Positions 6,781 to 60,660 of a stretch of 61,494 nt of DNA are shown here, one piece after another. The stretch's first letter is position 1. Each line of letters opens with the position of its first letter. Source of the stretch: a virus (lineage: Duplodnaviria; Caudoviricetes); IMG/VR virus record IMGVR_UViG_3300037470_000143, positions 1 to 61,494 of that record. One strand, 5' to 3'. Made by a program: the position numbers and the translations under genes. A model generated the notes under the pieces. The model saw only the letters and a program-made list of their open reading frames with translations. It was not told the origin of the DNA and did no database searches.

Positions 6781-7143
6781 ATGACCATGGCCAATTTCGC
6801 AGACAAGGCGAGCGCCGCCCGCCGTGCTCGTGAGAAGCGCGAACAAGCCGTGCTCGAAGAGAAGGCGTTGGCCGACGGCCAACTCTGGACCGTAATGATC
6901 GCCTACAAGTACGACCGTGCTTTCGCGGTGGTCTGGTCCGGTCGAATCGACGAGGGCACCGTTGAAGCGTTCGAGAGCCAGCACACTGACGCCTTTATGG
7001 TGCTTGAACCGAAGGTGATCCTCGGCACCAAGCTGCATGTTCGCCAGCAGGTTTGCCAGCTGGCAAATTCCGACGAGATCACGATCAGGGTGATCGGAGC
7101 CCCTAAACACGAGCCGATATCGCCCGGCATCCTGCAACTCTGA
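6781..7143 (+). CDS. Hypothetical protein
   Basis: GGGAGA RBS; operon context. Confidence 0.75.
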   Translation: MTMANFADKASAARRAREKREQAVLEEKALADGQLWTVMIAYKYDRAFAVVWSGRIDEGTVEAFESQHTDAFMVLEPKVILGTKLHVRQQVCQLANSDEITIRVIGAPKHEPISPGILQL

Positions 7144-7197
7144 ACGAATCCATCCCGGGGGTTCGCCCCCGGCCCCAACCACAGAACAGGAGCGACC

Positions 7198-7749
7198 ATG
7201 CCCCGTGTCGTCAAGAGAAAAGCTCGCAAAGACTACCCCGCTCAGGGGATCAAGAAGGGCGACGAATACTACTACACCAAGCTGAAGCTGCAACGCGGCG
7301 GCATGGTTAAACGGTCTCTGACCCCCTTCAAGCAGAGCCAGCTGACGAACAGCCCGTTCAAGTCTGGCTTCCTCGCCGCCGGGGAGGTCTGGGAGGCAAG
7401 CGGCAAGGACGCGGAAGCGATCCGGTCCGCTGCCGAGGCCATCGGCGAGCTGGGCGACGAGGCCCGGTCGAACTTCGAGAACATGCCCGAGGGACTTCAG
7501 CAGGGCGACACGGGCCAGCAGATCGAAAACCGGGCTTCCGAATGCGAGCGCATCAAGGACGAGCTGGAAAGCCTCGCCGATGAGATGGACGCCCTTGAAG
7601 AGCCCATCGAACCTCTGGGAGACCTCGAAAATGAAGAGGAAAACGACGAGGCTTCGGTGGAATACGAGGAAACCCAGCAGGAGTATGAAGACGAGATCGA
7701 ACGCATTAAGGATGAGGTCGACTCTCTTCTGGGGGATATGCCGGAATGA
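7198..7749 (+). CDS. Hypothetical protein with basic N-terminus and very acidic C-terminus
   Basis: CAGGAG RBS; K/R-rich start and E/D-rich last ~70 aa. Confidence 0.85.
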   Translation: MPRVVKRKARKDYPAQGIKKGDEYYYTKLKLQRGGMVKRSLTPFKQSQLTNSPFKSGFLAAGEVWEASGKDAEAIRSAAEAIGELGDEARSNFENMPEGLQQGDTGQQIENRASECERIKDELESLADEMDALEEPIEPLGDLENEEENDEASVEYEETQQEYEDEIERIKDEVDSLLGDMPE

Positions 7750-7880
7750 CCCCCGTCATCACCTTCTCTGAACTCATTGGCGTGATCGCGTGGGCGACCA
7801 TCGCCTTGTGGATTCTCGTAGGACTCGCGGTCCAGTATATTCGGGCGAAACGTCGCCACAAAGGGGAGAACCAGAAATGA
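7746..7880 (+). CDS. Small single-TM membrane protein (not in the ORF track)
   Basis: Translated by hand: MTPVITFSELIGVIAWATIALWILVGLAVQYIRAKRRHKGENQK; overlaps both neighbours by 4 nt. Confidence 0.65.
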   Translation: MTPVITFSELIGVIAWATIALWILVGLAVQYIRAKRRHKGENQK

Positions 7881-8416
7881 CGCAGCAGGCTGAAAAACTA
7901 GTGAAAGCACATATCGTCAACTTGAAGAACTTCACCCCGGAGGACGTCGACCTCGAACTGGTCGAGGCCAAGCTGTGGAACATCCGCAGGTTCAATGGTC
8001 ATCCAGAGGCGCTGATGGTTCGCCAGCACACCCATCTGGTGGAGGAACTGGCCGCGCACGATGGAGCCACCCCCGAGGTCGTCGAGTGGTGCCGCCACCA
8101 CGACGACCATGAGGGCATCATTGGCGATGTGATCGGCCCGGTCGAAACGATCATCCGGGAACACACTCCCGTCCTCGACTACCTGAAGAACCATCTCGAC
8201 GTCTGCATCTGCGGCGCGCGCGGGATCAACTACCCGAGCGTGGTCACCAAGAAGGCCACCCATTTCTACGACAAGCTTGCCGAGAGTTTGGAGTGGCAGT
8301 TCGGGCTGGGCTACGACGACGCTGGGTTTCACCCCGACTGGCCCAGCTGGATCGCCAGCAACCGCCATTACGCCAGAGATTTGTTCGAGAGAGCGCGAGA
8401 CCGGGCCCGCCCCTGA
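7877..8416 (+). CDS. HD-domain phosphohydrolase (YfbR-like 5'-deoxynucleotidase family)
   Basis: RFNGH...VRQH...HHDDHEGIIGD motif pattern. Confidence 0.7.
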   Translation: MTQQAEKLVKAHIVNLKNFTPEDVDLELVEAKLWNIRRFNGHPEALMVRQHTHLVEELAAHDGATPEVVEWCRHHDDHEGIIGDVIGPVETIIREHTPVLDYLKNHLDVCICGARGINYPSVVTKKATHFYDKLAESLEWQFGLGYDDAGFHPDWPSWIASNRHYARDLFERARDRARP

Positions 8417-8634
8417 TGTTCTACCGATGCTCGATCCATTGCACCGATTGCGGTAAGATCGTCGCATCGGTTTTGACACAGGGCCGAAACATCCCACGAC
8501 GCCAGCTCTGGCGTGCGGCCCGGGAGAAAGGGGCCGTGACCGATCAGGCCGGGCGGTGGTATTGCGGACCCCGTTGCAAGACCGCTTTCCGGATGACCCA
8601 CAATACCAGCCACAAGGACACGCCATGCCTGTGA
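8416..8634 (+). CDS. Small Cys-rich putative Zn-binding protein
   Basis: CTDC and CGPRC pairs; TGATG coupling. Confidence 0.65.
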   Translation: MFYRCSIHCTDCGKIVASVLTQGRNIPRRQLWRAAREKGAVTDQAGRWYCGPRCKTAFRMTHNTSHKDTPCL

Positions 8635-8873
8635 AGCCCCCCAACCGCGTCGTCTTCCTCGATTTCGCTGAGATCGAAGCTCGCCTGTTGGCTGACATGA
8701 GCCAAGCCCTTGGTGTGCCCTCCGATCAGATGGGCAAGGAAGCCCATGACGCTCGGCAGCGCGGAAAAATCGCTCGGCATGTCCTCAACTCCAAGGTGGG
8801 CACGATCACGGGCCGGTTCACCCGAGAGAGCCCGCCCTTCCAAGAACTCGTCCCGGACAAGACCAAGGATTGA
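8625..8873 (+). CDS. 82-aa protein composed of family-A DNA polymerase-like motifs
   Basis: AAGGA RBS; LDFAEIEARLLA (motif A-like) and GTITGRFTRESPPFQEL (TGR...PNLQN-like). Confidence 0.6.
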   Translation: MPVKPPNRVVFLDFAEIEARLLADMSQALGVPSDQMGKEAHDARQRGKIARHVLNSKVGTITGRFTRESPPFQELVPDKTKD

Positions 8874-8930
8874 CCAAACCACAACATCCGGGGCAATGTT
8901 CCCCGATCAAATCAACATATGGGAATCACC

Positions 8931-11729
8931 ATGAAAGACCTCCTGACGCATTTTCACGCTCCGATCTCCGCTGAAATCTGGCAGAACAAGTACCGTTTCG
9001 TCGACAAGTTCACGAACGAAATCTTCGACGAAACCGTTGAGGATACTTGGCGGCGCGTTGCGTCGGCACTGGCCGAACCCGAAGAGAGCAACGGGCCACT
9101 GAAAGCTGGCTCGATGAGTTCCCCGGAATACTGGACGCAGGAGTTCTACGATGCGCTCTCAGATTTCAAGTTTCTCCCGGCTGGGCGTATCCTTGCGGGG
9201 GCTGGCACCGCGCGCCGTGTGACCCTGTTCAACTGCTATGTCATGGGCACGATTCCCGATAGCATGGATGGCATCTTTTCCAGCCTCCGGGAAGCGGCGC
9301 TGACGATGCAGCAGGGGGGAGGGATCGGGTACGACTTCTCGACGATCCGCCCGAAGAACGCGCAAGTGAAGCAGGTCGCTGCCGACGCCTCCGGCCCGCT
9401 GTCCTTCATGGATGTGTGGGACGCCATGTGCAGGACGGTTATGTCGGCCGGGTCGCGGCGCGGCGCGATGATGGCGACCATGCGCTGCGACCACCCTGAC
9501 ATCGAAGCCTTCATCGGGGCGAAGGCCGATCCGAACCGTCTGCGGATGTTCAACATGTCTGTTCTGGTGACGGACGCCTTCATGGCCGCCGTCAAGAACC
9601 GGAAGAACTGGGACCTCACCTTTGGCGGGAAGGTTTACAAGACGGTCTGGGCCCCGAACCTGTGGCGAACGATCATGGAATCGACCTACGCCCACGCGGA
9701 GCCGGGCGTGATTTTCATCGACCGGATCAATCAGGAAAACAACCTGAAATACATGGAGACGATCTCGGCCACGAACCCATGTGGAGAGCAGCCGCTGCCG
9801 CCCTATGGGGCATGCCTGCTGGGCTCCATCAACCTCGCCCGCCTCGTCAAGAACCCCTACCAAACCTCGTCTGGGGTAGACATAGCTGAGTTGAGGAAAC
9901 TCGTCTCTGTTGCGATCCGGATGATGGACAACGTGAACGACGTATCGCTCTTCCCTCTGGAAGAGCAGCTGGCCGAAGCCAAGGCCAAGCGCCGCGTTGG
10001 TCTGGGCGTAACGGGCCTAGCGGACGCCCTACTGATGTGTGGCCTGCGCTACGGGTCGGACGAGGCCGCTGAACGTGCCGAGACGTGGATGAGGATGATC
10101 GCACTGGCGGCCTATGAAGCCAGCATAGACCTCGCCCGGGAGAAGGGGCCTTTCCCGGCTCTGGACCGTGCCCAGTACCTGAACAGCGGCCAATTCGCCG
10201 ATCTTAAACTGCCCGGAACCATGAAGCAGGACATCATGAAGTATGGTATCCGGAACGCTCTCCTGCTGTCCATCGCCCCGACCGGGACGATCTCGCTCTA
10301 CGCAGGGAACGTCAGCTCGGGGATCGAGCCCATCTTCGCCCCAAGCTTCACTCGGAAGACCCTTCAAGACGACGGGTCGAAGAAAGAGCAGCTCGTGGTC
10401 GACTATGCGGTCTCGGTCTGGGAAGACATGAATCGGGGCATGGTCAAAGACAACCGAGAACTGACCGGAGAGCCCACGCAGGCCCTGCCCCCGGCCTATG
10501 TCGACGCTCAGAGCCTGACCCCGGCCGAGCATGTGAAGATGCAGGCCGCCGTCCAGAAGTGGGTCGACACGTCGATCTCGAAGACCATCAACGTGCCGGA
10601 GGACATCTCGTTCGAGGACTTCAAGGCGGTCTACGAGATGGCCTTCGACAACGGCCTGAAGGGCTGCACCACCTACCGGCCTAACGAGGTCACGGGGTCT
10701 GTCATTTCGGTCGAGAAACCCAAAGGTGAATCCGAAACCACGGTGAAGTCGACACCCCACAACAACGATCTACTGAAGGCAGAAGCCAATCTGCTGATGG
10801 ATGAAGCTCGACGCTACGCCGAGACCGAGGACCACAGGAAAGAGCTGAGGAAAAAACTGACCGAACTGGGGGTATCGAAGGTCAAGGACCTGACGGGACC
10901 GCTCCATGTGGAAAAAGCACACAAGCTCTACAATTGGCTGGTCGAGCAGCAGGAGCCCAATGGTGAATCCGAAACCACGTCAAGGGGGCCAATGCTCGTC
11001 GTGGAGACAAACCCGTCCAATGATAAGTCTTGGGTCGAGAACATCTTCCGGGACGAACCAGAGGGAGACCCCTACAAGCAGTTCGCAGAAGACCTAGCGA
11101 AAGCCGAAAATGCCCCACCGGGCGGAAACGTAGTTGTCGACGAGAAGCCGCAGGAGCGCGGGTTTGTTCTCGACGGGTCGACCTACAAGATCAAGCTCGG
11201 CGACTCGGCGGCCGTCTACGTGACGATCACCGACGTGGAGACCGAGGAAGGGATGCGGCCGTTCGAAGTCTTCATCGCCACCAAAGACCCGGCGCACCAG
11301 CAGTGGACGACAGCCCTCACCCTGATGATTTCGGCCGTGTTCCGCAGGCCCCACAATAGCCGCTTCGTCGTCGAAGAGCTGAAGAGCGTCTTCGACCCGA
11401 AAGGCGGAGGCTTCTGGCATGGCAAATACTGGAACTCGACCGTGGCCGCCATCGGCCGGGTGATCGAGGTTCACATGGAGCGCATCGGCTACATCAACCG
11501 TCCGGAAGTCCCGTGGGAGCTGGTAGAAAAAGGTCGTTTGACACACGACCACCCCAATCCGCAGAGCTTTCCCCGGGATCGAGCCGAGGATTTCGTATTT
11601 GCCTCGACGCGCGGAGATGCCAAGATCGAGGTCGCGAAGAGGACGTGCCCAAAGTGCTATTCGACAAACCTGCGGCACGAGAGCGGGTGTCTGACCTGCA
11701 ACGACTGCGGCCACAGCAAGTGCGGCTGA
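8931..11729 (+). CDS. nrdJ: Class II (adenosylcobalamin-dependent) ribonucleotide reductase with C-terminal TSCPD/Zn-ribbon domain
   Basis: TLFNCYV, GGGIGYDFS, ATNPCGEQPLPPYGACLLGS, SIAPTGTIS, GLKGCTTYR and terminal CPKC..CLTCNDCGHSKCG; no nrdB nearby; start could be 8919. Confidence 0.93.
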   Translation: MKDLLTHFHAPISAEIWQNKYRFVDKFTNEIFDETVEDTWRRVASALAEPEESNGPLKAGSMSSPEYWTQEFYDALSDFKFLPAGRILAGAGTARRVTLFNCYVMGTIPDSMDGIFSSLREAALTMQQGGGIGYDFSTIRPKNAQVKQVAADASGPLSFMDVWDAMCRTVMSAGSRRGAMMATMRCDHPDIEAFIGAKADPNRLRMFNMSVLVTDAFMAAVKNRKNWDLTFGGKVYKTVWAPNLWRTIMESTYAHAEPGVIFIDRINQENNLKYMETISATNPCGEQPLPPYGACLLGSINLARLVKNPYQTSSGVDIAELRKLVSVAIRMMDNVNDVSLFPLEEQLAEAKAKRRVGLGVTGLADALLMCGLRYGSDEAAERAETWMRMIALAAYEASIDLAREKGPFPALDRAQYLNSGQFADLKLPGTMKQDIMKYGIRNALLLSIAPTGTISLYAGNVSSGIEPIFAPSFTRKTLQDDGSKKEQLVVDYAVSVWEDMNRGMVKDNRELTGEPTQALPPAYVDAQSLTPAEHVKMQAAVQKWVDTSISKTINVPEDISFEDFKAVYEMAFDNGLKGCTTYRPNEVTGSVISVEKPKGESETTVKSTPHNNDLLKAEANLLMDEARRYAETEDHRKELRKKLTELGVSKVKDLTGPLHVEKAHKLYNWLVEQQEPNGESETTSRGPMLVVETNPSNDKSWVENIFRDEPEGDPYKQFAEDLAKAENAPPGGNVVVDEKPQERGFVLDGSTYKIKLGDSAAVYVTITDVETEEGMRPFEVFIATKDPAHQQWTTALTLMISAVFRRPHNSRFVVEELKSVFDPKGGGFWHGKYWNSTVAAIGRVIEVHMERIGYINRPEVPWELVEKGRLTHDHPNPQSFPRDRAEDFVFASTRGDAKIEVAKRTCPKCYSTNLRHESGCLTCNDCGHSKCG

Positions 11730-11805
11730 ACTTGCCGGTTTTCTGAACCGGGAGCGATTAACCTAGCGAGGGCATGGTGCCCCCACAAAACAAAGGAGAG
11801 ACGAC

Positions 11806-12015
11806 ATGACGACACGAGTTCTGGTAGACGCCCACGCGGGTTGGCCGGTGAAGGTCGAGGCTATCGACAAGGTCTATGACCGCGCGACAAGCGAGTATAC
11901 TGGTGAAACCCAGACGACAGAGACGACCGTGGTCCGGCCGAACACCGAGCAGGAGTTCTACGTCCACGATAGCAGGCAGCTGCTCATCACCGAGATGGCA
12001 CCGACCGAGGGCTAA
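11806..12015 (+). CDS. Hypothetical protein
   Basis: AAAGGAGAG RBS. Confidence 0.75.
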   Translation: MTTRVLVDAHAGWPVKVEAIDKVYDRATSEYTGETQTTETTVVRPNTEQEFYVHDSRQLLITEMAPTEG

Positions 12016-13483: not shown

Positions 13484-13609
13484 GGAGATAACTCATGCCC
13501 GATTGGCTTGTAGACCTGCTCTCGATCCTTGGGATCGTTTCTATATTTGGACTCGCTGGCTGGGCCCTGCTTAACGACGAAGACGACGTGCCATAGGGGG
13601 AACAGGGCA

Positions 13610-14512
13610 GTGTTTGAACAGTTCGTAGAGAAGAAATTCCGGCAGGATTCGATGGACCTCATCGGGACGGCCAACGACGTCCTCGCCGAGTATGCCGCCG
13701 ACGACTTCACACTGACGCTCCGCCAGCTCTATTACCAGTTCGTCGCCCGGGGCCTTCTCGGCAACACGGACCGGAACTACAAGCGGCTGGGCGGGGTTAT
13801 TACTGACGCCCGCATGGCCGGTCTCATCGACTGGGACGCCATCGAAGACCGGGGTCGCAACCTCGGGAAGTGGCTTATCCAGCCGAACATCAGAGCGATC
13901 CTGAAGTCCCTCCCAAAGAAGCTGGCACAGGACATGTGGGCGGAACAGGAGCACTACGTCGAGGTCTGGGTCGAGAAGGACGCCCTGTCATCTATCGTCG
14001 AGCGCGCCTGTGGCGACCGCAGAGTTCCCTTCCTCGCCTGCAAGGGCTACCTGTCCGCGTCCGAGGCATACCGGGCCGCCAAGCGGTTCGAGGGAGCCCA
14101 ACGCAACGGGAAGCAGGCTCACATCATCCACCTCGGCGACCATGATCCATCTGGCCTCGACATGACCCGGGATAACCGGGAGCGCGTGTCGATGATGGCG
14201 TGGGACGAGGTATACGTCCAAAGGATCGCGCTGAACCGGGATCAGATCGACCAGTATGCCCCGCCGCCGAACCCGGCCAAGGTAACGGACTCCCGGGCCG
14301 CCGATTACATCGCCCGGCATGGACGCACCAGCTGGGAGCTGGATGCCCTCGAACCCCGGGTCCTCGTCGACCTTATCCACGAGGCCATCGAGCCTCTGGT
14401 CGACGAGGACCAATGGCAGGCCGACCTTGACATCGAGCGCGAGAAAGAGGCCCTGCTACGTGGCGTTCACGAGAACTGGGATGATCTTGAGCAGATCATC
14501 CGAGAGAGCTAG
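13610..14512 (+). CDS. TOPRIM protein of the topoisomerase VI-A/Spo11/JetD-like class
   Basis: LTLRQLYYQ helix, EVWVEKDAL, HLGDHDPSG (DxD) and WELDAL; GTG start inferred. Confidence 0.75.
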   Translation: MFEQFVEKKFRQDSMDLIGTANDVLAEYAADDFTLTLRQLYYQFVARGLLGNTDRNYKRLGGVITDARMAGLIDWDAIEDRGRNLGKWLIQPNIRAILKSLPKKLAQDMWAEQEHYVEVWVEKDALSSIVERACGDRRVPFLACKGYLSASEAYRAAKRFEGAQRNGKQAHIIHLGDHDPSGLDMTRDNRERVSMMAWDEVYVQRIALNRDQIDQYAPPPNPAKVTDSRAADYIARHGRTSWELDALEPRVLVDLIHEAIEPLVDEDQWQADLDIEREKEALLRGVHENWDDLEQIIRES

Positions 14513-26568: not shown

Positions 26569-28824
26569 TTAAGCTCCTGTGCCGTAGCTCTCACCGTAGC
26601 CTACCCCATAGCCCCCGTCGACAAGAGTCAGCTGACGTTCGTAATATTGTAGCGATTCGAGTCCATCCCGCTCCGCCAGAACCTGAATTTTCACTTCGCC
26701 GTCCCCGTCGGTCGTGGGCCCCGACATCGGGACGTCGTAGCTCGTCCCCGTCAGCCCGGTATATTCCACGATCAGGTTCCCGTCGAGGTCAACGAACCGA
26801 ATGGTCGTCGTCTGTCCGTCCTCGGGTGTGACTGTTGCCTCATCCCAGTAGAGCGCAACCGTATCTTCGAGGGTCCTGTTTCGGTTCGCCCAAGTGACAG
26901 TGAACTCGGTAAAACCCGTCAAGTCGAAAGTGCCCCATCCACCATCAGCTTCGACCTTCACGTTCGCCGGGCGGAAGGGCAGGTGCGGGCGTTCCGAGAC
27001 GGAGTAAACCAGCTCGGTCGCATCGACCACGTCCAACACGCCGCTGATGGTCTTTGGCCGCAGCCAGTAGCTGACGTCGGCCCCCGCTGCGCGGAGGTTA
27101 GGGTCGGTGGACGCCGTCGAGGACGGCCGCAGATACCACAGCTCCGTGCCTGTGGACCAGTCGCGAGGAACTGTGTCGTAGATGCCCCGCTTGACCGTCC
27201 AAGCCCCAGCCCCGTAGCTCTTCAGCATGATGATCTCGTTGACGGAATCATCGGTCGAGTCGCCAAGGTAGAAGAGCTGCCCTGACGCCAGATCGGGCAT
27301 GGCCCCCACCATCGAGAACATGTCCGCATCTGCGATAGTGGACTCCGCTTCCGCAACGAGATCGGCAGACAACGCCCCGAAGGGTGTTTCGAGCATCCCG
27401 GCGTAGCTCTCTGTCACCGTGTCGCCCGCCGTGTTCACCCGCTCGGTGGTGAGCGTGAAGCTCTCCGTCGCGCTGTCGTCGTTCTGTCCGAGCAACACGA
27501 CGCGGGCGTCCGAGTATGTGGTCGTGGCCCCGAAAGCGGACAGGAAGGGGTAAGGAACCGTGATCGCACTCTGCTGATCGAAGGGTTCAGGAGCTGACAC
27601 CGGCACGGTCCAACTCGTAGTGGGAGGTGTCTCGAACTCCCCTTTGTCGAGCGACCAGATATCTTCTGTCACCGACAGAATCATCTTGCCGGAACCCTTC
27701 TTACCCTTGTCGATGTCGAGGACACGAACCGCCATGCTGGCGATCCCTTCTTCCGGCCAGACCAGCTCGACGACCTCCCCGGGAACGACCGGGCCTTGCG
27801 ACCTGTCCGTGATGATTTTGCAGCTGAACAGGGGGTAGCTCGCCTCGCGGATATCACGCTCTCCGAGGGTCCACGCATGGTCGGCTTTGCGGACCCCGTA
27901 GTAGTTCCGGCTGTCAGATTTGATCTGGCCGCTTTGGGCTGAGATGTTGGCAAGGTCCTGAAGAGTGACCGTGGCCTCTTCCTCGTTCTCCGGGTTGGTG
28001 TAGGTGATGACGATCTCGTTGATCGTGTCTTCGAGCGCCCGACGTTGCATGTCTTCGAGCGTGCAGTTGTCAGGATCGAAGGTCTTGGCCGAAGTCAGGT
28101 CGTAGTCATCCCGGAACAACTTGATCTCGATAAGGCCGGTCGTTGGATCAGTGTAGACCGCCGCTTGGATGTGGTCGAGGATTTCGGCGACGAACGCTTC
28201 GATCTCCCCCGGGCGCGTCCACATCATCGAGAGGCCGATCCCCTCATTGTAGATCGTCTCGGCTGCTGCCAGCCAGCTCGCCAGATTGAAGGCTGCGACA
28301 GGCCAACCCAGCCCCCAATCGGAGTTGGTGTAGACCTCGAAGACCATATGAACAGCGTTGCTGCCCCCATCCATACTGGCGTGGGCGTCGTTCAAGTTTG
28401 CGTGCTTGGAAATACGAGTGACCTTGACGTCAAGCGGCGAGATGAAGGGGTTGTTCTGCGCAACCATGAACCCCCGGCCGTTGGGGCCGTCGTGAAACCA
28501 AAGCGAGGCGATCCCCCGGTAGCCCGGGGCTGTGGCGCTGGTGAGTCCCAAGTACCCGGCAAGCTTGTCTGTAAGAACCTGCGCGGCCCCTCCGAGTAGG
28601 ACGTGGACTTTCCCGATCACACCACCTTCCGCATCATTCCCACCGAATAGCTCCGGAAGGTCGATGCTCAGTTCGCCATTCGAGTCGAGGGTGCCTGACC
28701 ACGCCACGTCCTCGCCTTTGAACCTGATCTCGTCGATGCTGTCGACCGGCCCCCAGCAGATGCCCCAGTGCATGTCGATGTGGTAGTCGATTACACGACG
28801 TTTGGCCCCACCTTTGCTACCCAT
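26569..28824 (-). CDS. Tail tip/central tail protein (lambda J/GTA megatron-like)
   Basis: GICWGPVD, PGYRG, putative phage-tail domain and VKRGIYDT. Confidence 0.85.
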   Translation of the reverse strand: MGSKGGAKRRVIDYHIDMHWGICWGPVDSIDEIRFKGEDVAWSGTLDSNGELSIDLPELFGGNDAEGGVIGKVHVLLGGAAQVLTDKLAGYLGLTSATAPGYRGIASLWFHDGPNGRGFMVAQNNPFISPLDVKVTRISKHANLNDAHASMDGGSNAVHMVFEVYTNSDWGLGWPVAAFNLASWLAAAETIYNEGIGLSMMWTRPGEIEAFVAEILDHIQAAVYTDPTTGLIEIKLFRDDYDLTSAKTFDPDNCTLEDMQRRALEDTINEIVITYTNPENEEEATVTLQDLANISAQSGQIKSDSRNYYGVRKADHAWTLGERDIREASYPLFSCKIITDRSQGPVVPGEVVELVWPEEGIASMAVRVLDIDKGKKGSGKMILSVTEDIWSLDKGEFETPPTTSWTVPVSAPEPFDQQSAITVPYPFLSAFGATTTYSDARVVLLGQNDDSATESFTLTTERVNTAGDTVTESYAGMLETPFGALSADLVAEAESTIADADMFSMVGAMPDLASGQLFYLGDSTDDSVNEIIMLKSYGAGAWTVKRGIYDTVPRDWSTGTELWYLRPSSTASTDPNLRAAGADVSYWLRPKTISGVLDVVDATELVYSVSERPHLPFRPANVKVEADGGWGTFDLTGFTEFTVTWANRNRTLEDTVALYWDEATVTPEDGQTTTIRFVDLDGNLIVEYTGLTGTSYDVPMSGPTTDGDGEVKIQVLAERDGLESLQYYERQLTLVDGGYGVGYGESYGTGA

Positions 28825-50799: not shown

Positions 50800-52334
50800 G
50801 CTGCCATCTTCTCCAAACGGACCCTGACGGTATCCGTGATGCTGTCCTGTGTCGCCCCCTTGGTTTGCAGAGCGCGGAGAACGTCAAAGTCCGCCGTCCC
50901 TTGCGCCAAAATCCGGTAGAGAAAGACCCTGCTCTCGGTCTGCCCCGGCCGCCACAGGCGCTTGATGAACTGAAGGTATAGTTCGAGGCTCCATGTGAGA
51001 CCATACCAGACCGCGATGTTGCTTCCCTTCTGGAAGTTAAGCCCGTGGCCCGCACTGGCTGGGTGCATCAACATCATCGGGATACGCCCGGCGTTCCAGT
51101 GCCTCTTGTCGTTCTCCCCCTCTCCGAAGACCCGCGCCTGCGGGAACCGCTTCAATATCGCATCCTTGTCGAACTTGAAGGAATAGGCAACCAGCAGTGG
51201 CTTGCCTCCTGATTCTTCCACGATGGATTCCAGAGCATCAAGCTTCTTGGTATGGACCGGGTGATCGACCCCGTCCTCTCCGTAGAGGCTCCCGTTGGCG
51301 TATTGCAGGAGCTTGCCGACGAGAACGCCGCCGTTGACGGCCTCGATCCATTCAGGGTCTCCCCAGCGGCCCATGACCTCTAATGCGCTCTCGCGTTCCA
51401 GTTCGCGATACTGAGACCGCTCTCGGGGGTTGAGCGTCACTTTGCGGTCAACGTGAATCAGCGGTGGGAGGTCAAGATAATCCTCGGATCGGAGGCTATA
51501 GAAGACCCCTTTCAGCGCCCGGGTTATGTCTTCCAATGCGCCCTCTCTGGGCTCGACCTTGTTGGTGTACTTGTCCTCGATAAACCAGCGCCGCTTGTAA
51601 GCTGTCATCGAATTGCCCAGACGCTTCCCTCGGTCGATAGCGTAGACCGGACCATAAAGGTCGATCAGCCCGTTCGGGGCCGGGGTGCCGCTCAGCTCGA
51701 CGAGCTTCTTAGTCTTGAACCTGACCGCATCAAGAACACCCAGCTCCGACAGACGAGGCTTTGATTCTGTGCCGTCCTTGCGCTGGTTCTTCCGCGTTCT
51801 GGTCATGCCCCTCTTCAACCGGGACGCCTCGTCATAGACGATGAAATCGAAGCACCACCGCTTCAGGCCGAGCTTGCGCAGAAGCCACCGCAGGTTCTCC
51901 CGGTTGACGATGGTCAGGTCTCCGGGGCCGAGCTTCAGCGCAGCGATCCTCTCGGGCTCTGTGCCGGTCACAACGCGGTAACGGAGGTCCCGGGCGAAAG
52001 CCCACTTGGCGATTTCTTCCGTCCAAGTCTCTTCCGCGACGTAGAGCGGAGCGACGATGAGGCCGTGCTTCACCCTTCCTTCTCTCAGGAGGCGAACAAA
52101 GGCGTGAAGAACCGACCCGGTTTTGCCAAGGCCCATATCAGCCCCGAGATACACCCCGGCTTCTTCGAGGACTTCGTCGATATCTAGATGGACCCCCGAG
52201 CCGCAGATCAGGTCGGACATCCAGTTCTGGTAGCGCCGCATGTCCTCTTCAAAGAGCATGTCGTCGGGGGGACCCCAAATCAGCTCTTCGGCTTCGAGGT
52301 CATTCAGATGTTTCGGAAGGACGAGCTTAGCCAT
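50796..52334 (-). CDS. SNF2-family helicase
   Basis: DMGLGKT, DEAS, LSGTPAPNG, SAGHGLNFQ and RLWRPGQ. Confidence 0.92.
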   Translation of the reverse strand: MAKLVLPKHLNDLEAEELIWGPPDDMLFEEDMRRYQNWMSDLICGSGVHLDIDEVLEEAGVYLGADMGLGKTGSVLHAFVRLLREGRVKHGLIVAPLYVAEETWTEEIAKWAFARDLRYRVVTGTEPERIAALKLGPGDLTIVNRENLRWLLRKLGLKRWCFDFIVYDEASRLKRGMTRTRKNQRKDGTESKPRLSELGVLDAVRFKTKKLVELSGTPAPNGLIDLYGPVYAIDRGKRLGNSMTAYKRRWFIEDKYTNKVEPREGALEDITRALKGVFYSLRSEDYLDLPPLIHVDRKVTLNPRERSQYRELERESALEVMGRWGDPEWIEAVNGGVLVGKLLQYANGSLYGEDGVDHPVHTKKLDALESIVEESGGKPLLVAYSFKFDKDAILKRFPQARVFGEGENDKRHWNAGRIPMMLMHPASAGHGLNFQKGSNIAVWYGLTWSLELYLQFIKRLWRPGQTESRVFLYRILAQGTADFDVLRALQTKGATQDSITDTVRVRLEKMAA

Positions 52335-52605: not shown

Positions 52606-54771
52606 CTAGTCCTTTTTGAATACCTTCGACGTAAAGCCTGCTGATCCCAGAGGCAGACCGGTGGCCCAGTCTGGCGATTCTTCCATGCAGGCGTTCATGA
52701 TTTCAAGAGCCTCGCTGGCTTGATCTTCGCGCACGAGGGCAAGGTTCTGGTCGTGGACGTGAAGCCGGATGTCGAGCTTGTGTTTCCAGCGAGCAAGGCG
52801 CATCCCGTGAACCAGAAGATCACGGGCGATGGCTTGGTCCGCGTTCTCCGTGATCTTCCCCGGGTGGGTCGACATCCGGACCCATTGCTTCTTGTCGTCA
52901 ACCCCCTCGTAGGTCAGGGAATCCTTGAAGGCTGGCTTACCATCGTCGGTGGTCCACGGCATCTTCACCGGCTGGATGCGGGGCTTGAAGTAGTGCAGGT
53001 AACGTCCGCTAGGGAGCTTCATACGAAGAAACTCGCCGCCGACCCTCATCACTTGGCCGTCGATAGTGATGTCTTTCGAGCCGTTGACCATGTCAAACAT
53101 GACATGGCCGCAGCTGGTGGCCCGACGTTCCTTGACGCAGGTTACAGCGGCTCGCTCGATGGCATACCAGTAGTTCTTGACCTCTTTGAACTCGCGTCGG
53201 AAGGTCTTCACCGAGAGGTCCGATTGCTCTGGGGTGAAGTGCCTGACCCCCATGTTCCACGCATAGCCGAGAAGGCCCGTCGCCTCGATCTCACCGGTCT
53301 GTCGATTCTCATACTTCTTGCCCGGTCCTAGCATGTAGCCGCACCCGAGAACGCCCGGCTTGGCGATGGTGCGCTTGGCGCTGTTACCCAGCTGGTATTC
53401 ATCCCAGAGATCGTCGTAGGGCTCGTCGTAGAGGTAGGTGGCAAAGTCGATATAGGGGTCACGGCCCAACTCGAAGACCCGCAGGATTTTGGGGCAGTTC
53501 GAAAGCCACCCAAGGACGCGGTTCTCGATGGCGTTCAGGTCGGCATCGACGAACAGGTAGCCCTCCGGAGCCTGTGCTGCCGGGCGGATGCAACTCGCCA
53601 GAAGATCGAAGGTGTTGTCGTAGATCAGCTCGATCCCTTCAAGGTCCAGCCGAGCGATGTTGGCCGCGTGTATTTCGATCTCTTTCTCGAACCTCTTCTC
53701 GGGCCGGGGCAGGTTCTGTGGCTGAAAGGTCCTCCCGGCCCAACGTCCGGTGCGCGAGGCTCCCATAAATTGGAGAACATTCCTCAGGTTTCCGTCGGGA
53801 CTGGTCGCTTTTTGTAAGGCGGCGAATTTCTTGATGCTGGTGCGGCTCAGTTCCAGCCGCAACGAGAGGACGTCCTTCAGGTCATTATTCGAGCGATAGA
53901 ACTCCCAGAAGTCCGTGTCCCAGTGATCCGGACAATCGTTGAAATAGTCAAACGCTTGCCGGATGTGGCCCTTCTTGCAGTCCTCGAACATATACCCGTT
54001 GGTGTTCAACCACGGCAAAAGCTGCTGGGTGGACATAGGGTTGGCAAGACCCGTCAATTCCTTCAAATCCCTGACGCCGTTGGCGAAAGCCTCGTCATAT
54101 ATACGGACCGCGTTATTCACCATGCCCATGTTGATCGGGAGACCAGCCTGATTGATCTGCTGATCCAGTATCCAATTTTCCCATTCCCACTGGGGGAGAT
54201 CGTGAGAAATCAGTATTTCCCTGATCTGGCTTTCGGCTTCAACGTCGTCTCGATTATACAGGAGATACCCCTGCCAATCGGCCATATCCTGCCACCAGTA
54301 GGTGCGTTCCCTCTCGCCGTAGTTGGCCTTCTTACGACTGGTCTTCATCATCGAAAATTTGCGCATAAGGCGCTTGCCGTCGGGGTTTTTGCACAGTTGG
54401 GTCGGGAGCCCGACAGCTGGACCAGCCTTTTCCAGCTGCCCGGGAAAGCCGCAATAGTGACCGAGGACCATCGTGTCGCGCCACTGACGTAGGTCGACCT
54501 TCTTCTTCCACACGTTCTTGGTGATGGTCATCTCGAAGGCCGCGTTCCAAGCCCACTTCTCGACCTCCGGGTCGACCATGGCCTCGGCCAATTCCGCCGG
54601 ACATTCCTCACCCTCGGCCGGGACCCATTGCTTCTTAGGGCCCATGTTGATCCGGTAGGCGCACATCAGAATCTCTGTCGACGGGTGGATCGAGTAATTG
54701 TGCGATCCGACGTCAGACAGGTCGGCCTCCGAGAAAGTCTCGTAGTCCAGATTCATAATGTCCTTGGGCAT
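52606..54771 (-). CDS. Family A DNA polymerase with 3'-5' exonuclease
   Basis: LDYETFS, RTGRWAG, DLNAIENR, RTIAKPGVLGCGY, ENADQAIARD and HVHDQ. Confidence 0.93.
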   Translation of the reverse strand: MPKDIMNLDYETFSEADLSDVGSHNYSIHPSTEILMCAYRINMGPKKQWVPAEGEECPAELAEAMVDPEVEKWAWNAAFEMTITKNVWKKKVDLRQWRDTMVLGHYCGFPGQLEKAGPAVGLPTQLCKNPDGKRLMRKFSMMKTSRKKANYGERERTYWWQDMADWQGYLLYNRDDVEAESQIREILISHDLPQWEWENWILDQQINQAGLPINMGMVNNAVRIYDEAFANGVRDLKELTGLANPMSTQQLLPWLNTNGYMFEDCKKGHIRQAFDYFNDCPDHWDTDFWEFYRSNNDLKDVLSLRLELSRTSIKKFAALQKATSPDGNLRNVLQFMGASRTGRWAGRTFQPQNLPRPEKRFEKEIEIHAANIARLDLEGIELIYDNTFDLLASCIRPAAQAPEGYLFVDADLNAIENRVLGWLSNCPKILRVFELGRDPYIDFATYLYDEPYDDLWDEYQLGNSAKRTIAKPGVLGCGYMLGPGKKYENRQTGEIEATGLLGYAWNMGVRHFTPEQSDLSVKTFRREFKEVKNYWYAIERAAVTCVKERRATSCGHVMFDMVNGSKDITIDGQVMRVGGEFLRMKLPSGRYLHYFKPRIQPVKMPWTTDDGKPAFKDSLTYEGVDDKKQWVRMSTHPGKITENADQAIARDLLVHGMRLARWKHKLDIRLHVHDQNLALVREDQASEALEIMNACMEESPDWATGLPLGSAGFTSKVFKKD

Positions 54772-55774: not shown

Positions 55775-57037
55775 TTAGATCAGGCTCTCGGGTTCATCAG
55801 GTTCATCCCAAGCTTCGTCCAGCATATCCGCCGCCGATTTCAGGGCGGGCTTGGGGTCGTCTTCGGGAACCAGTGCCGGGGACGGTTCGGCTTGTGTCAC
55901 GAGCCGGGCGAACCTTTGGCGGTACTCTGTTTTCCCGATTTCGTCCTCGACCATGGCCGGGGACAAAAGGGTTTTCTTGTAAGCGTCATCCGCGCCGAGC
56001 TGGTCGATCACGATCTTCTCGGCCTTGGCTTCATCCTTCCACTTGCGACGGCCAGCCCGGCCTGCCACGCGCTTCATGCCGGGCACCGGACGGCCCTTGG
56101 TCGCATCGTCCATTGCTTCTTCGTAGAGCTGTGTCAAAAAGCCCGTGATGAGTTTCGTATTCAGAACAATCAGCGAACGCTGTTCGGGCGTCAAGGCCCT
56201 TCTGTCGATCAAATCCAAGCTGTCGTGAGCTTCGACCCGTGCCCCCGCGTCTTCCTCGTCCAGCTCGTCTCCAAGCATCGCCACAATGGCGTCAGCGCGA
56301 GCCTTGCATACGTTATGGGCGGCTGCCGCGCAAAACTGACATTGCTTCGTCCCGGGGCTGTAAGGGGCCTCCGGATCGCGTGTCAGGTTGGCGTCCTTCC
56401 TCAGTTGTCGTCCTTCGCTCAGCAGCGTCGACAGCTGGACCTCCCAGACGCCCCCGCCGCCGGGAGCTCGGGGCTGCTCGATGATGATCTCCACCGTGAT
56501 ATCGCTCGACCCAACACCAGCTTTCTCGAACATCTCACGGGCGAACGTGTTCCAGACGCCCAGAGTATAGCAAATGCCCTGATCGTTCCACTTCGGGAGA
56601 ATTGGAACGCCCGCGCCCCACTTCCAGTCAAAGACCGTCAGGCGCTTGCGCTCAACGTCGATGACGAAGGAATCACTGGTGCCCCCCTCCCCTTCCCCCA
56701 ACCACGGGGAAAGGTCGACCCATTCCTCGACCATCATCACCGCGCCGGGGTAGTTCGAGATCGACCACATCAGGTCGAGCCCGGGAAGCATCTTGTCACA
56801 CATCTCCTGAGTGAACTCGCGCGTCTCCCCATCTTCACAGGGGAGACGAGCCCCGACCATCCCCCACGGCTCCACACCAAACTCCAAGGCCAAAGCCGCG
56901 AAGTGGTGGAAAACCGTGCCTTGGTGGGCTTCTTCACCCGCCGTATCAGGCAGACCGTCACATTCGCGAATCGCCGCCGGGCAAGCCCGCCAACGATGCG
57001 CGGATGAGGGTGATCTGGGGGAATGGTAACCGGGCAT
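55775..57037 (-). CDS. DUF2800 PD-(D/E)xK (Cas4-like) exonuclease
   Basis: HSPRSPSSAHRWRACP, GTSD, DWKWGAG, Q..CY.LG and QCQFC. Confidence 0.88.
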   Translation of the reverse strand: MPGYHSPRSPSSAHRWRACPAAIRECDGLPDTAGEEAHQGTVFHHFAALALEFGVEPWGMVGARLPCEDGETREFTQEMCDKMLPGLDLMWSISNYPGAVMMVEEWVDLSPWLGEGEGGTSDSFVIDVERKRLTVFDWKWGAGVPILPKWNDQGICYTLGVWNTFAREMFEKAGVGSSDITVEIIIEQPRAPGGGGVWEVQLSTLLSEGRQLRKDANLTRDPEAPYSPGTKQCQFCAAAAHNVCKARADAIVAMLGDELDEEDAGARVEAHDSLDLIDRRALTPEQRSLIVLNTKLITGFLTQLYEEAMDDATKGRPVPGMKRVAGRAGRRKWKDEAKAEKIVIDQLGADDAYKKTLLSPAMVEDEIGKTEYRQRFARLVTQAEPSPALVPEDDPKPALKSAADMLDEAWDEPDEPESLI

Positions 57038-57764: not shown

Positions 57765-57849
57765 CCTGTCCGACTAGGATGAAAACTTATCCTCTCTCCT
57801 GACAACGAAGAGGGGTCCGACAAAAAACTACGTGGGGCGGGGAACCTTC

Positions 57850-60660
57850 ATGCCGGAATTAGCAGTTCTTCCGACGTCTATTCTACCTACAACAACAGTC
57901 CGTTACGCGGAAGGCGGCAGCGAAAACCTCGCCGAATCGACCAACAAGGAAACGAGCTTCCGGCAGCTCGGCCTCTCCCTCTCCAAGCCTCTCGTTACGC
58001 GGGAGAAATTCGCCCAGTTCAAGAGCGCAGGGGACCCTGAACAGCACCGTCTGAAGAGAATCGCCGGGTGGATCATCCGCGCCCCGATCACCGGGGGGAA
58101 GCGCAAGAAAGATTCGGTCGAGCACGGCCGCCTCATCACCCTCGACATCGACAATGCGACCCCGGCCTTCATGGAACAACTGCTGGCGGGGGACGTCCTC
58201 CCAGAGTGGACCCTGTTCGCCCACACCACGCGCAGCCACACCCCGGAGAATCCCCGGGTCCGGATAGTCCTGCTGGCCCACAAGCCCATCCAACCGGATG
58301 ACTACCAGCGGGTCTCACGCATCCTCTCCCAGAAGATCGACCCCGACATGTCGATTGTCGACAAGGTCTCTTCCCGGGTCGCCCAGCTGATGTATCGCCC
58401 CAGCTGCTCCGCCGACATGGAGAGGCACTTCCGCTACTACGAGCAGCTGGGTAGCGAGGTTGACTGGGAAGAGCTGATCGACCAGTGGGAGGCCAAAACC
58501 GGGGCCGACTCACGCGACATCACCAAGCTCCCCCGGTTCAAGGACGAATCGGAGCTGCGCGAGGTCGCCGACAAGGTCGAGGACCCGCTGCTGAAGAAAG
58601 GCCCGGTCGGGTACTTCTGCCGGGCCTATTTGATCTCGGAACTGGTCGAGGGGAAGGACGGAGAGCCGCCGATCCTCGAAGGCGTCTACGAGGTTAGCGA
58701 GTGGGACCAGAATGGCACCCCGAAGCGCCTGACCTACCTGCTGGGCCACAGCCAGAACGGGGTGGTCCTCTACAACAACGACACGCTCTGCTACAGCCAC
58801 CACGGCTCCGACCCGGCCGCTGACCGGACCCTGAACGCCTTCGACCTCGTCCGCATCCACCGCTTCGGTGAAGCCGACGACGACATGAACCAGCCGCCGA
58901 ACGCCCGCAAGAGCTACAAGGACATGGTCGCCTTCGCCAAGGACCAGCCCGCCTACAAGCGCCAGCAGGGCCTCGACCGCTACGACATGGCCGCGATGCT
59001 CGACGATGTCGAGGACGACGGCTGGGTCGAGGAAGAGACCGCAGAGGACCTGCTGGGCTTCGACCACATGATGGCTGACGAGCGCCAGAAGGCGCACGAC
59101 GAGGACAATGCCGAGATCGACGACCTGTTGGGGGTGCCAACCGGAAGTGTGGTCCCCGAGATATCCAACCCCTACCAGCGCCTGCGGGCAGAGAAGCCGC
59201 CGAAGGACTGGATCGCGACCGAGCTGGAACTGGGGGCCAATGGTGAGATCAAACCGACCCTGACCAACATGGCGATCATCATCGGCAACGATTCCCGGCT
59301 CTGGCGCAAAATCGCCTTCAACGCCTTCTCGAACCAAGTCATGCTGCTGGGCGACATCAAAACCCGAAACAGCCGAGTCCCCACCGTCTCCGTCCAGAAC
59401 CACGACACAGGCGACAACTGGTCAGACATCAACGACATTGTCATCCGGGCGATCATAGAAGGCCCCGCCGGGCCCGGGCTGCCGGGCTACGGGACGGCCG
59501 TGACGGACCGCAACCTCGTCGGGGGCGTGAAGCTCGCCGCCCGGCGCAACAGCTTCCATCCGATCCGCGATCAGATCGCCCGATGGCGTAAGGTCGAATG
59601 GGATGGGGTCGACAGGGTCGGAACCTTCCTACAGCGCCATCTGGGGGCCGAACAGAACGCCTACACGGCCATGACCATGCGGATGATGCTGATCGCCTCC
59701 ATCGCCCGCGTAGAGACGCCCGGGTGCAAATTCGACTACGCCCTGATCCTCGAAGGTCTGACCGGCATCGGTAAATCGACCCTCATCAAGATTCTCTATG
59801 GCGAAGAGTTCTTCGGCGAGCTGGACGCAGACCTCGCGGACCGGCAGGCCGTGGCGGAGCAGATCGCGGGCAAGTGGGCCCTCGAACTGCCGGAGCTGGG
59901 GTCCCTGTCGAAGTCGGACTACAACCACGCTAAGATATTTATGCGCCGCCAGTTCGACGACGTGCGGCTCGCCTACGACCGCTCGGTCTCGGTGCTGCCC
60001 CGGCAATGCGTCGTCTGGGGCACGACCAACGAGAAAGTCTACCTGAAGGACCCTTATGGCAACCGGAGCTACTGGGTGGTGAAGTGCGAGGCCGAGAACA
60101 TCGACTTCGCGGCGGTCCTGCGCGAGCGCGAGCAGCTGTGGGCTCAGGCCGTCGTCGAGCATGACCGGATGCGGGCCCAGTATCCCAACACCGACATGCC
60201 CCTGACCCTGACCGGAGAAGCTCTGGTGATCGCCCGCGAGCAGCAGGAGAGCGTCCGGATCAAGGAAGCGTGGGAAGACTGGGTCGACCAGCTGATCGAG
60301 TGGTTCGAGCAACCAGTCCACAAAGGCTACCTCCTAGCCGAGATGGGTATCCCTAACGATGATCTCGACGACATGAACGACGAGAAGGTCCAGATGATCG
60401 CGTTCACTCAGGATATGGCCAAGGAAGCTCTTGGGTTCCGGCGCGGCGCGCTGACCAGCCTCGACAACATGCACTGGTCGAAACTGAAGCACCGGCTCGA
60501 AGAGATGGGCTTCATCAGCCACAAGTGCCGGATCGCCGGATCGCCGCCGAAGAACTATCTTATTTCTCCGGACGCGATCACAGACGATCTCCGTCGCGGC
60601 TATACCCAAACGGTAGGGGCGGAGCCCACCCGAGACTCAGAAGATGAAGACCTGATCTGA
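57850..60660 (+). CDS. Primase/helicase with a VirE (virulence-associated E) domain
   Basis: LDID, HTTRSH..PRVR, PGCKFDY, GLTGIGKST, PRQCVVWGTTN and GNRSYW. Confidence 0.9.
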   Translation: MPELAVLPTSILPTTTVRYAEGGSENLAESTNKETSFRQLGLSLSKPLVTREKFAQFKSAGDPEQHRLKRIAGWIIRAPITGGKRKKDSVEHGRLITLDIDNATPAFMEQLLAGDVLPEWTLFAHTTRSHTPENPRVRIVLLAHKPIQPDDYQRVSRILSQKIDPDMSIVDKVSSRVAQLMYRPSCSADMERHFRYYEQLGSEVDWEELIDQWEAKTGADSRDITKLPRFKDESELREVADKVEDPLLKKGPVGYFCRAYLISELVEGKDGEPPILEGVYEVSEWDQNGTPKRLTYLLGHSQNGVVLYNNDTLCYSHHGSDPAADRTLNAFDLVRIHRFGEADDDMNQPPNARKSYKDMVAFAKDQPAYKRQQGLDRYDMAAMLDDVEDDGWVEEETAEDLLGFDHMMADERQKAHDEDNAEIDDLLGVPTGSVVPEISNPYQRLRAEKPPKDWIATELELGANGEIKPTLTNMAIIIGNDSRLWRKIAFNAFSNQVMLLGDIKTRNSRVPTVSVQNHDTGDNWSDINDIVIRAIIEGPAGPGLPGYGTAVTDRNLVGGVKLAARRNSFHPIRDQIARWRKVEWDGVDRVGTFLQRHLGAEQNAYTAMTMRMMLIASIARVETPGCKFDYALILEGLTGIGKSTLIKILYGEEFFGELDADLADRQAVAEQIAGKWALELPELGSLSKSDYNHAKIFMRRQFDDVRLAYDRSVSVLPRQCVVWGTTNEKVYLKDPYGNRSYWVVKCEAENIDFAAVLREREQLWAQAVVEHDRMRAQYPNTDMPLTLTGEALVIAREQQESVRIKEAWEDWVDQLIEWFEQPVHKGYLLAEMGIPNDDLDDMNDEKVQMIAFTQDMAKEALGFRRGALTSLDNMHWSKLKHRLEEMGFISHKCRIAGSPPKNYLISPDAITDDLRRGYTQTVGAEPTRDSEDEDLI

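Follow-up and report, generated by a model that had tools for sequence, protein, structure and literature searches.

A conserved phage mini-protein predicted to derive from family A DNA polymerase motifs in permuted order

The virus genome analysed here is a complete record of 61,494 bp, which is the whole stretch of DNA under study (the window), and it contains a predicted gene, genuine and conserved by the evidence below, whose 82-aa product (P0001; Table 1) is a non-catalytic mini-protein derived from family A DNA polymerases (PolAs). When its proposed origin and mechanism are included, P0001 is probably a non-catalytic, rearranged fragment of the PolA active site which belongs to a sporadic set of phage proteins carrying such fragments. 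The original prediction of an assembly from shuffled PolA motifs is borne out by the order of the matches to the Klenow chain, by the BLASTP alignment with the PolA of Clostridium phage phiCT453A, by shuffle tests and by a profile (A4) built from related fragment proteins.

Table 1. Positions in the window of the mini-protein gene, its three PolA-like blocks and the genes discussed with it.
Feature	Position	Strand	Description	Evidence
Mini-protein gene (P0001)	8625-8873	+	82 aa plus stop	ORF and translation, codon statistics, aligned ends of the homologues P0005, P0006 and P0007
A block, residues 5-28	8637-8708	+	strand, motif A (DFAEIEAR), then helix	PF00476, Klenow, shuffles, profile A4
B' block, residues 29-50	8709-8774	+	LGVP lead-in and first half of motif B (RQRGKIA)	BLASTP, shuffles
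M2 block, residues 51-78	8775-8858	+	RHVLNSKVGTITGRFTRESPPFQELVPD; TGR...P..Q	Klenow, FA88 PolA, P0008, profile A4
Shine-Dalgarno-like AAGGA	8614-8618	+	6 nt 5' of the mini-gene ATG	sequence reading
Upstream Zn-ribbon-like small gene	8416-8634	+	homologue at the same position in S-ESS1	ORF list and sequence
nrdJ-type ribonucleotide reductase, downstream neighbour	8919-11729	+		Pfam PF02867 (2e-127), PF00317, TSCPD
Own full-length family A polymerase (P0002)	52606-54771	-	not the mini-protein source	PF00476

The open reading frame had been described as intact, with a ribosome-binding site of its own and a location just upstream of nrdJ, and this description is upheld by the AAGGA sequence before the ATG, the codon statistics and the ends of the homologues. 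The GC content at the three codon positions (0.66/0.41/0.73) follows the pattern of the genome's confident genes, and the codon score (+0.22) is the highest among the six frames. The ATG is overlapped by the stop of the upstream Zn-ribbon ORF, while 45 nt separate the gene from nrdJ. A longer form of 105 aa starting from GTG at 8556 was rejected, as the starts of the homologues give it no support, and so was a -1 frameshift fusion with the Zn-ribbon ORF, as no slippery heptamer occurs in 8600-8634 and the homologues start at the aligned methionine. In three sediment-metagenome runs (X1-X3), whose contigs were mapped to positions 7000-12000, the mini-gene is covered exactly in X1, probably the run behind the record itself, thinly in X3 and not in X2, and no variants over 8625-8873 were found among the contigs of the three runs. 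Exact short contigs of the window phage thus mapped come from three separate studies.

Three consecutive blocks of P0001, designated A, B' and M2, resemble conserved regions of family A polymerases, typified by PF00476, the Klenow chain 8oo6_A and the PolAs of phiCT453A and Clostridium phage FA88. The strand and helix of motif A are common to these polymerases and P0001, and the polymerases also share with it the motif B start (LGVP...RQ+GKIA) and the block H..N...T.TGR....P..Q, which contains the M2 motif (TGR...P..Q). Motif A is present as DFAEIEAR at residues 13-20 with the catalytic aspartate. In a Pfam search, PF00476 was the only family with E<=1, its positions 152-172 matching residues 7-27 of P0001 (E 0.04), at a score (13.3 bits) below the gathering cut-off of the family (34.3). 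By BLASTP, residues 4-75 of P0001 align collinearly with residues 386-479 of the phiCT453A PolA (E 8e-7), where the alignment path passes through motif A and a 21-residue gap and then places ...GVP...RQRGKIA opposite ...KVP...RQKGKIA, the start of motif B. When PDB was searched with a two-sequence profile (E<=10), family A polymerases accounted for 49 of 56 distinct sequences, and with the homologue P0005 alone for 44 of 46 matches in the same two stretches, while P0001 alone gave chance-level matches only (Jumonji, RPF2). In a tblastn search of phage records, 17 of the 26 matched records fall under annotated polymerases, each with E 1-8.

The blocks were compared one by one with 8 PolAs by Smith-Waterman alignment, using 300 shuffles per comparison. 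For the A block, the score was reached by no more than one of 300 shuffles in 6 of the 8 polymerases; for the B' block, by none in 6 of the 8. The M2 block is significant against the Pol I-like PolA of FA88 (0/300) and not against the other seven; aligned with the true M2 motif of the FA88 PolA, it scores 58, which none of 300 shuffles reached. Reading the M2 block as a collinear continuation past motif B was rejected, as its score against the phiCT453A target (26) was equalled by 84 of 300 shuffles. The resemblances that had been noticed by eye, namely to motif A, to the lead-in of motif B and to the TATGRLSS..PNLQNI-type sequence (M2), are accordingly each supported, the first by PF00476, the Klenow match and the shuffles, the second by the phiCT453A alignment and the shuffles, and the third by the Klenow match and the FA88 comparison.

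In real family A polymerases M2 stands before motif A. These enzymes have 600-900 aa and the order M2, A, B, whereas P0001 has 82 aa and the order A, B', M2. In the HMMER comparison with PDB chains, residues 52-78 of the mini-protein match residues 332-357 of the Klenow chain and residues 9-43 match residues 377-412, so that the order is swapped, and it is again reversed with a local HMM of 8 PolA sequences. Profile A4, which consists of five fragment cores in canonical order, was searched in six frames over the whole 61.5-kb genome and matched the mini-ORF only, with 8799-8867 falling on profile positions 5-27 (E 2.5e-6) and 8643-8705 on positions 37-57 (E 2.2e-4). Two segments in swapped order are likewise found by BLASTP against the longer fragment protein P0008 (E 1e-7 and 4e-4), where residues 122-142 are the counterpart of the M2 block (E 1e-7), and against an ORF of the cyanophage S-ESS1 (E 2e-4 and 3e-3). 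The permuted order put forward at the outset is thus recovered by the PDB chains, the local PolA HMM and the genome-wide A4 search.

P0001 contains only the first half of motif B, and a complete motif B (O-helix) was not found in it (RQRGKIA versus RQKGKIAELALGYGG). Motif C, which carries the second catalytic aspartate and had been reported as missing, indeed has no equivalent in P0001, which stops 4 residues past M2. Besides motif C and the second half of motif B, it lacks the other parts of the fingers, the thumb and the exonuclease domain. Without these parts P0001 cannot polymerise DNA, and it is not a member of the family A polymerases, as it fails on motif C, on the complete motif B, on the block order and on the score cut-off.

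Direct homologues of P0001 are few. When 1.84 billion representatives were searched exhaustively with phmmer, two proteins had E<=0.001, the query and P0005 (66 aa, E 5e-10); a profile search of a 5.8-billion collection gave 4 proteins with E<=1 among 11 candidates, namely the query, P0005, P0006 (69 aa) and the 46-aa P0007, which is a P0006-type fragment. Scans of viral contigs (IMG/VR), metagenome contigs (JGI) and genomes (GTDB) turned up no close relative and no locus for P0001, P0005 or P0006. P0005 matches two families, with PF00476 at the top (E 2e-5, two stretches), and P0006 matches PF00476 only (E 0.028). The starts and ends of P0001, P0005 and P0006 align and 37 columns are invariant; P0001 and P0005 share 47% identity by BLASTP and 58% over the columns aligned by MAFFT, with one 14-residue gap. 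At this divergence (47-58% identity) the three homologues remain open and share their start and their C-terminal TKD, and their conservation is centred on the PolA-like blocks, which is how a gene under selection would look.

The search for homologues with the same permuted order, which had been suggested as a check, succeeded, as P0005 and P0006 also carry A before M2. In P0006, R replaces the G of TGR. The early description of a motif B piece holds for P0001 itself and does not extend to its 66-69-aa homologues, since P0005 and P0006 lack residues 34-47 (8724-8765; alignments A1 and A2); the job of the family therefore cannot depend on that piece.

P0001 is provisionally placed with a few PolA-fragment proteins that occur sporadically in siphophages infecting Rhodobacterales and cyanobacteria; this grouping is proposed here and is not a curated family. 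Dinoroseobacter phage R5C gp25 (ARB06079.1, 78 aa), Dinoroseobacter phage R26L gp115 (XBW75430.1, 217 aa), a protein of Paracoccus phage R3 (AJD83140.1, 102 aa), a 156-aa ORF of S-ESS1 and the metagenomic P0008 (268 aa) all contain, like P0001, the M2 and motif A blocks without motif C, and all, including P0001, lie amid small accessory or nucleotide-metabolism genes. P0008, found in a search among longer proteins, contains GTITGRFTRTYPPFHE followed by VDYSQIEARILAHM, an arrangement that runs collinear with positions 113-171 of PF00476 (E 1e-4), while P0009, from the same search, has the M2 block only. R26L gp115 shares 43% identity with P0008 (E 2e-35), and among the best 40 of the 131 records matched by its residues 55-185, 39 are polymerase genes and the other is gp115 itself. 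The Paracoccus phage R3 record bears the note 'DNA_pol_A_theta'.

The M2 block of R5C gp25 is close to that of R5C's own polymerase, and by tblastn its residues 3-64 are collinear with equal-length polymerase stretches without large gaps. A reading of gp25 as 'M2, motif B, motif A' was rejected, as its middle part is the normal inter-motif region in these equal-length stretches. In R5C (L016:3900-4000), an open frame 5' of the annotated GTG start of gp25 reads MLTRRRFLLGSAAVAAAAVAPVASRS and resembles a twin-arginine signal peptide; if this upstream start is used, the fragment protein may be exported, though the resemblance may equally be due to chance in a GC-rich frame.

The S-ESS1 ORF (L018:2312-2782; KY249644.1 ~51547-52014, minus strand) contains the M2 and motif A blocks, is unannotated in GenBank and has an ATG overlapping the stop of the preceding annotated CDS. 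It is located upstream of a homologue of the Zn-ribbon gene (L018:3387-3629, BLASTP E 1e-6) and of nrdJ, in a region syntenic with the window. Among cultured phages, S-ESS1 is the one most closely related to the window phage as judged from the polymerases (65% identity over 96% of the length), followed by the Ruegeria DSS3-P1-like siphophages (45%).

In the canonical fragment proteins M2 precedes A by 36-50 residues, while P0001, P0005 and P0006 have A and then M2; similarity between P0001 and the canonical proteins is confined to the blocks, with none outside them. T-[IV]-T-G-R-F and D-[FY]-x-x-[IV]-E-x-R are conserved across eight proteins in either order, although lengths and contexts differ widely. 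By profile A4 and the motif table, P0001 carries both T[IV]TGRF and D[FY]..[IV]E.R without motif C, and the M2-before-A order of the set is not found in it. It is regarded as a permuted variant because the related fragment proteins keep the normal M2-to-A order. The proline of M2 is followed by Q/K/H/R-E in 7 of 9 M2-bearing proteins, or 6 of 8 if only full members are counted; the ORF of S-ESS1 and the protein of Paracoccus phage R3 depart from this, and the R5C polymerase has Q-N there.

When IMG/VR was scanned with profile A4, 3 of 522 candidate stretches were confirmed, all of them from the cultured phages above, and a back-translated M2 pattern searched over viral contigs matched the contig of P0008 only. 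The clusters of the ESM Atlas nearest to P0001 (scores 0.92-0.93) comprise proteins of 73-108 aa, with PF00476 on 68%, 47% and 10% of their members, and are treated as a lead only.

The mini-gene is surrounded by early and nucleotide-metabolism genes. The gene at 7790-8416 encodes an HD-type protein similar to deoxyribonucleoside 5'-monophosphate phosphatases (phrog_318, E 1e-16), its stop overlaps the start of the Zn-ribbon gene (TGATG), and together with the mini-protein gene and nrdJ these two genes make up a single close-packed block on the + strand. NrdJ is long (936 aa), with the ribonucleotide reductase barrel ending at about residue 586 and TSCPD starting from residue 756; the approximately 170 residues between them are rich in E and K and have no domain match, and the C-terminus contains a zinc-ribbon-like CxxC...CxxC motif. 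In an IMG/VR relative (L004), different small ORFs occupy the slot between the HD-domain gene and nrdJ, and the product of L004:4623-5240, which replaces the mini-protein there, has a lipoprotein-like start followed by long acidic repeats of the DPDDEDPDDG type. The small ORFs 5' of nrdJ in RDJL3 are unrelated to the mini-protein. An accessory function would be typical of this slot, because it varies between relatives and lies amid early and nucleotide-metabolism genes.

The phage also encodes a full-length family A polymerase (P0002), the only gene matched by PF00476 in the whole genome at E<=10 (profile positions 140-203 and 320-369), whose motif A reads DLNAIENRVLGWLS, as claimed. P0002 was rejected as the source of the mini-protein, as the best BLASTP E value between the two is 3.4 and all blocks are non-significant against it in the shuffle tests; in the whole-genome search profile A4 did not match P0002. 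The replication set near the polymerase (13529-14512, 55775-57037 and 57832-60660) includes a topoisomerase-like protein (phrog_6247, E 5e-101), a DUF2800 protein and a VapE-domain primase-helicase-like protein, and a GTA-like tail domain (Phage-tail_3) is encoded at 26569-28824.

P0001 may have arisen by duplication or illegitimate recombination of a PolA-type fragment, followed by trimming to the present ends. The new joint would lie within ...RQRGKIARH..., between RQRGKIA and RH, where both parental segments would carry a G-K/R-I/V/L string. GKI occurs both in RQKGKIAEL, on the motif B side, and in TGKIHCTFNQ, which leads into M2 in the FA88 PolA, and it possibly represents microhomology at the joint. 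Shifted cyclically, the polymerase order M2, A, LGVP, B' becomes the order A, LGVP, B', M2 of P0001. The usual route to a circular permutation is the tandem duplication of a fragment and its subsequent trimming, which agrees with this shift. Alternatively, an illegitimate recombination might have joined motif B to the M2 lead-in. In the shuffle tests the A and B' blocks are most like the phiCT453A class of polymerases and the M2 block is like the Pol I class; as these are different PolA classes, a permutation of a single parent is not proven, and a chimeric origin of the mini-protein is possible.

A non-catalytic accessory protein which acts by partner binding or mimicry is the best inference for P0001. 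Its two conserved strands and helix would re-form a small piece of the polymerase palm, and this piece, either folded by itself or induced to fold by its partner, would bind a partner that normally meets that surface, thus mimicking the polymerase. The role of P0001 in early infection would then be counter-defence or modulation of a polymerase, not catalysis. This mechanism is speculative and less likely than not. The AlphaFold2 model, built from a two-sequence alignment (pLDDT 60), contains helices at residues 14-28 and 43-58 and no strands, and the ESM Atlas model has a pLDDT of 0.46, so that a palm-like fold is not borne out by these models. As described in parts of PMC11348598, escape from the defence systems Borvo and AbiQ maps to phage polymerases, and phages swap polymerase genes by illegitimate recombination; for these reasons a counter-defence role is conceivable rather than evidenced.

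It is unlikely, though deserving the first consideration among the alternatives, that P0001 is a functionless relic, i.e. a leftover of polymerase rearrangement which is still open and heading to decay. Such a relic would suit the tiny, sporadic distribution, the low confidence of the predicted structure and the polymerase swapping noted in part of PMC11348598. The original prediction had argued that the gene is not simply decaying, and this position is strengthened by the three diverged homologues, which keep their frame, start and C-terminal TKD, and by identity centred on the two PolA-like blocks that they share; moreover, codon usage fits the genome, the gene has its own ribosome-binding site, and fragment genes recur in at least 4 cultured phages.

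A decoy or inhibitor of a host defence that senses phage family A polymerases, the leading suggestion of the original prediction, is a rather improbable function of P0001; the dNTP sensor and the Pol I inhibitor that it also suggested are likewise candidate functions only. The gene is an accessory one in a variable slot, the most conserved PolA strings are kept, and they are kept in either order across the set, which would fit recognition of local features. To our knowledge, no sensor has been shown to read these PolA motifs, which counts against such a decoy, and P0001 would not mimic the resident enzyme because its blocks are unlike those of the phage's own polymerase. The mapping of Borvo and AbiQ escape to phage polymerases in PMC11348598 speaks in favour of a decoy. 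A wider form of this proposal, in which P0001 would represent an undescribed class of phage mini-proteins made from the 2-3 most conserved strings of the PolA active site, selected in any order and mimicking the palm as a decoy for Borvo/AbiQ-type sensors or as a plug of Pol I, is speculative and unlikely; if it were true, the permuted form in the window would mean that selection acts on local motifs and not on the overall topology of the chain.

P0001 is still less expected to be a dNTP sensor or sponge, a module binding nucleotides or metals through retained active-site residues; this function appears quite improbable. The D...E.R residues of motif A and the arginine of TGR are kept by all members, the R and K of RQRGK are kept in P0001, and the neighbouring genes are related to nucleotide metabolism (the HD-type dNMP phosphatase-like gene and nrdJ). 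On the other hand, motif C and the remaining O-helix region are absent and the AlphaFold2 fold is of low confidence, and the idea is weakened because the piece with the arginine and lysine of motif B is absent in P0005 and P0006. Finally, a chance resemblance, in which an unrelated ORFan happens to contain polymerase-like strings, appears close to refuted, for although each single database match of P0001 is weak (Pfam E 0.04; tblastn E 1-8), three separate blocks each fall on the correct PolA motif, P0005 reaches E 2e-5 against PF00476, and the profile of independent fragments finds the mini-ORF only, genome-wide and twice (E 2.5e-6 and 2.2e-4).

PolAs in pieces or with a small partner protein have precedents, as parts of PMC10201439 describe the T7-like split into exo and pol and the CCPol-MP pair among split or truncated PolAs. 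According to these parts, the pieces are whole domains that form an active enzyme, whereas P0001 is a sub-domain fragment of about 70 residues in a genome that also has a complete polymerase gene. When PolAs were reclassified in PMC10201439, all sequences of <350 aa were removed, and sub-domain PolA fragments may have gone unnoticed because surveys discard such short sequences. No description of PolA-fragment mini-proteins of this kind was found in the literature searched, and P0001 is regarded as a permuted variant within this polymerase-fragment set.

PolA fragments persist as genes in several phages, and one lineage has rearranged the pieces and yet keeps them. R5C and R26L, which infect Dinoroseobacter shibae, and Paracoccus phage R3 have cultured hosts, so that genetics is within reach, and the cyanophage S-ESS1 may be added to them. 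If the proteins are inert, they would be a record of long-lived debris from the rearrangement of polymerase genes. If the fragments mimic the active-site region of the polymerase, they would represent a novel type of accessory or counter-defence factor in phages, and P0001 would also be a natural circular permutation at the sub-domain scale.
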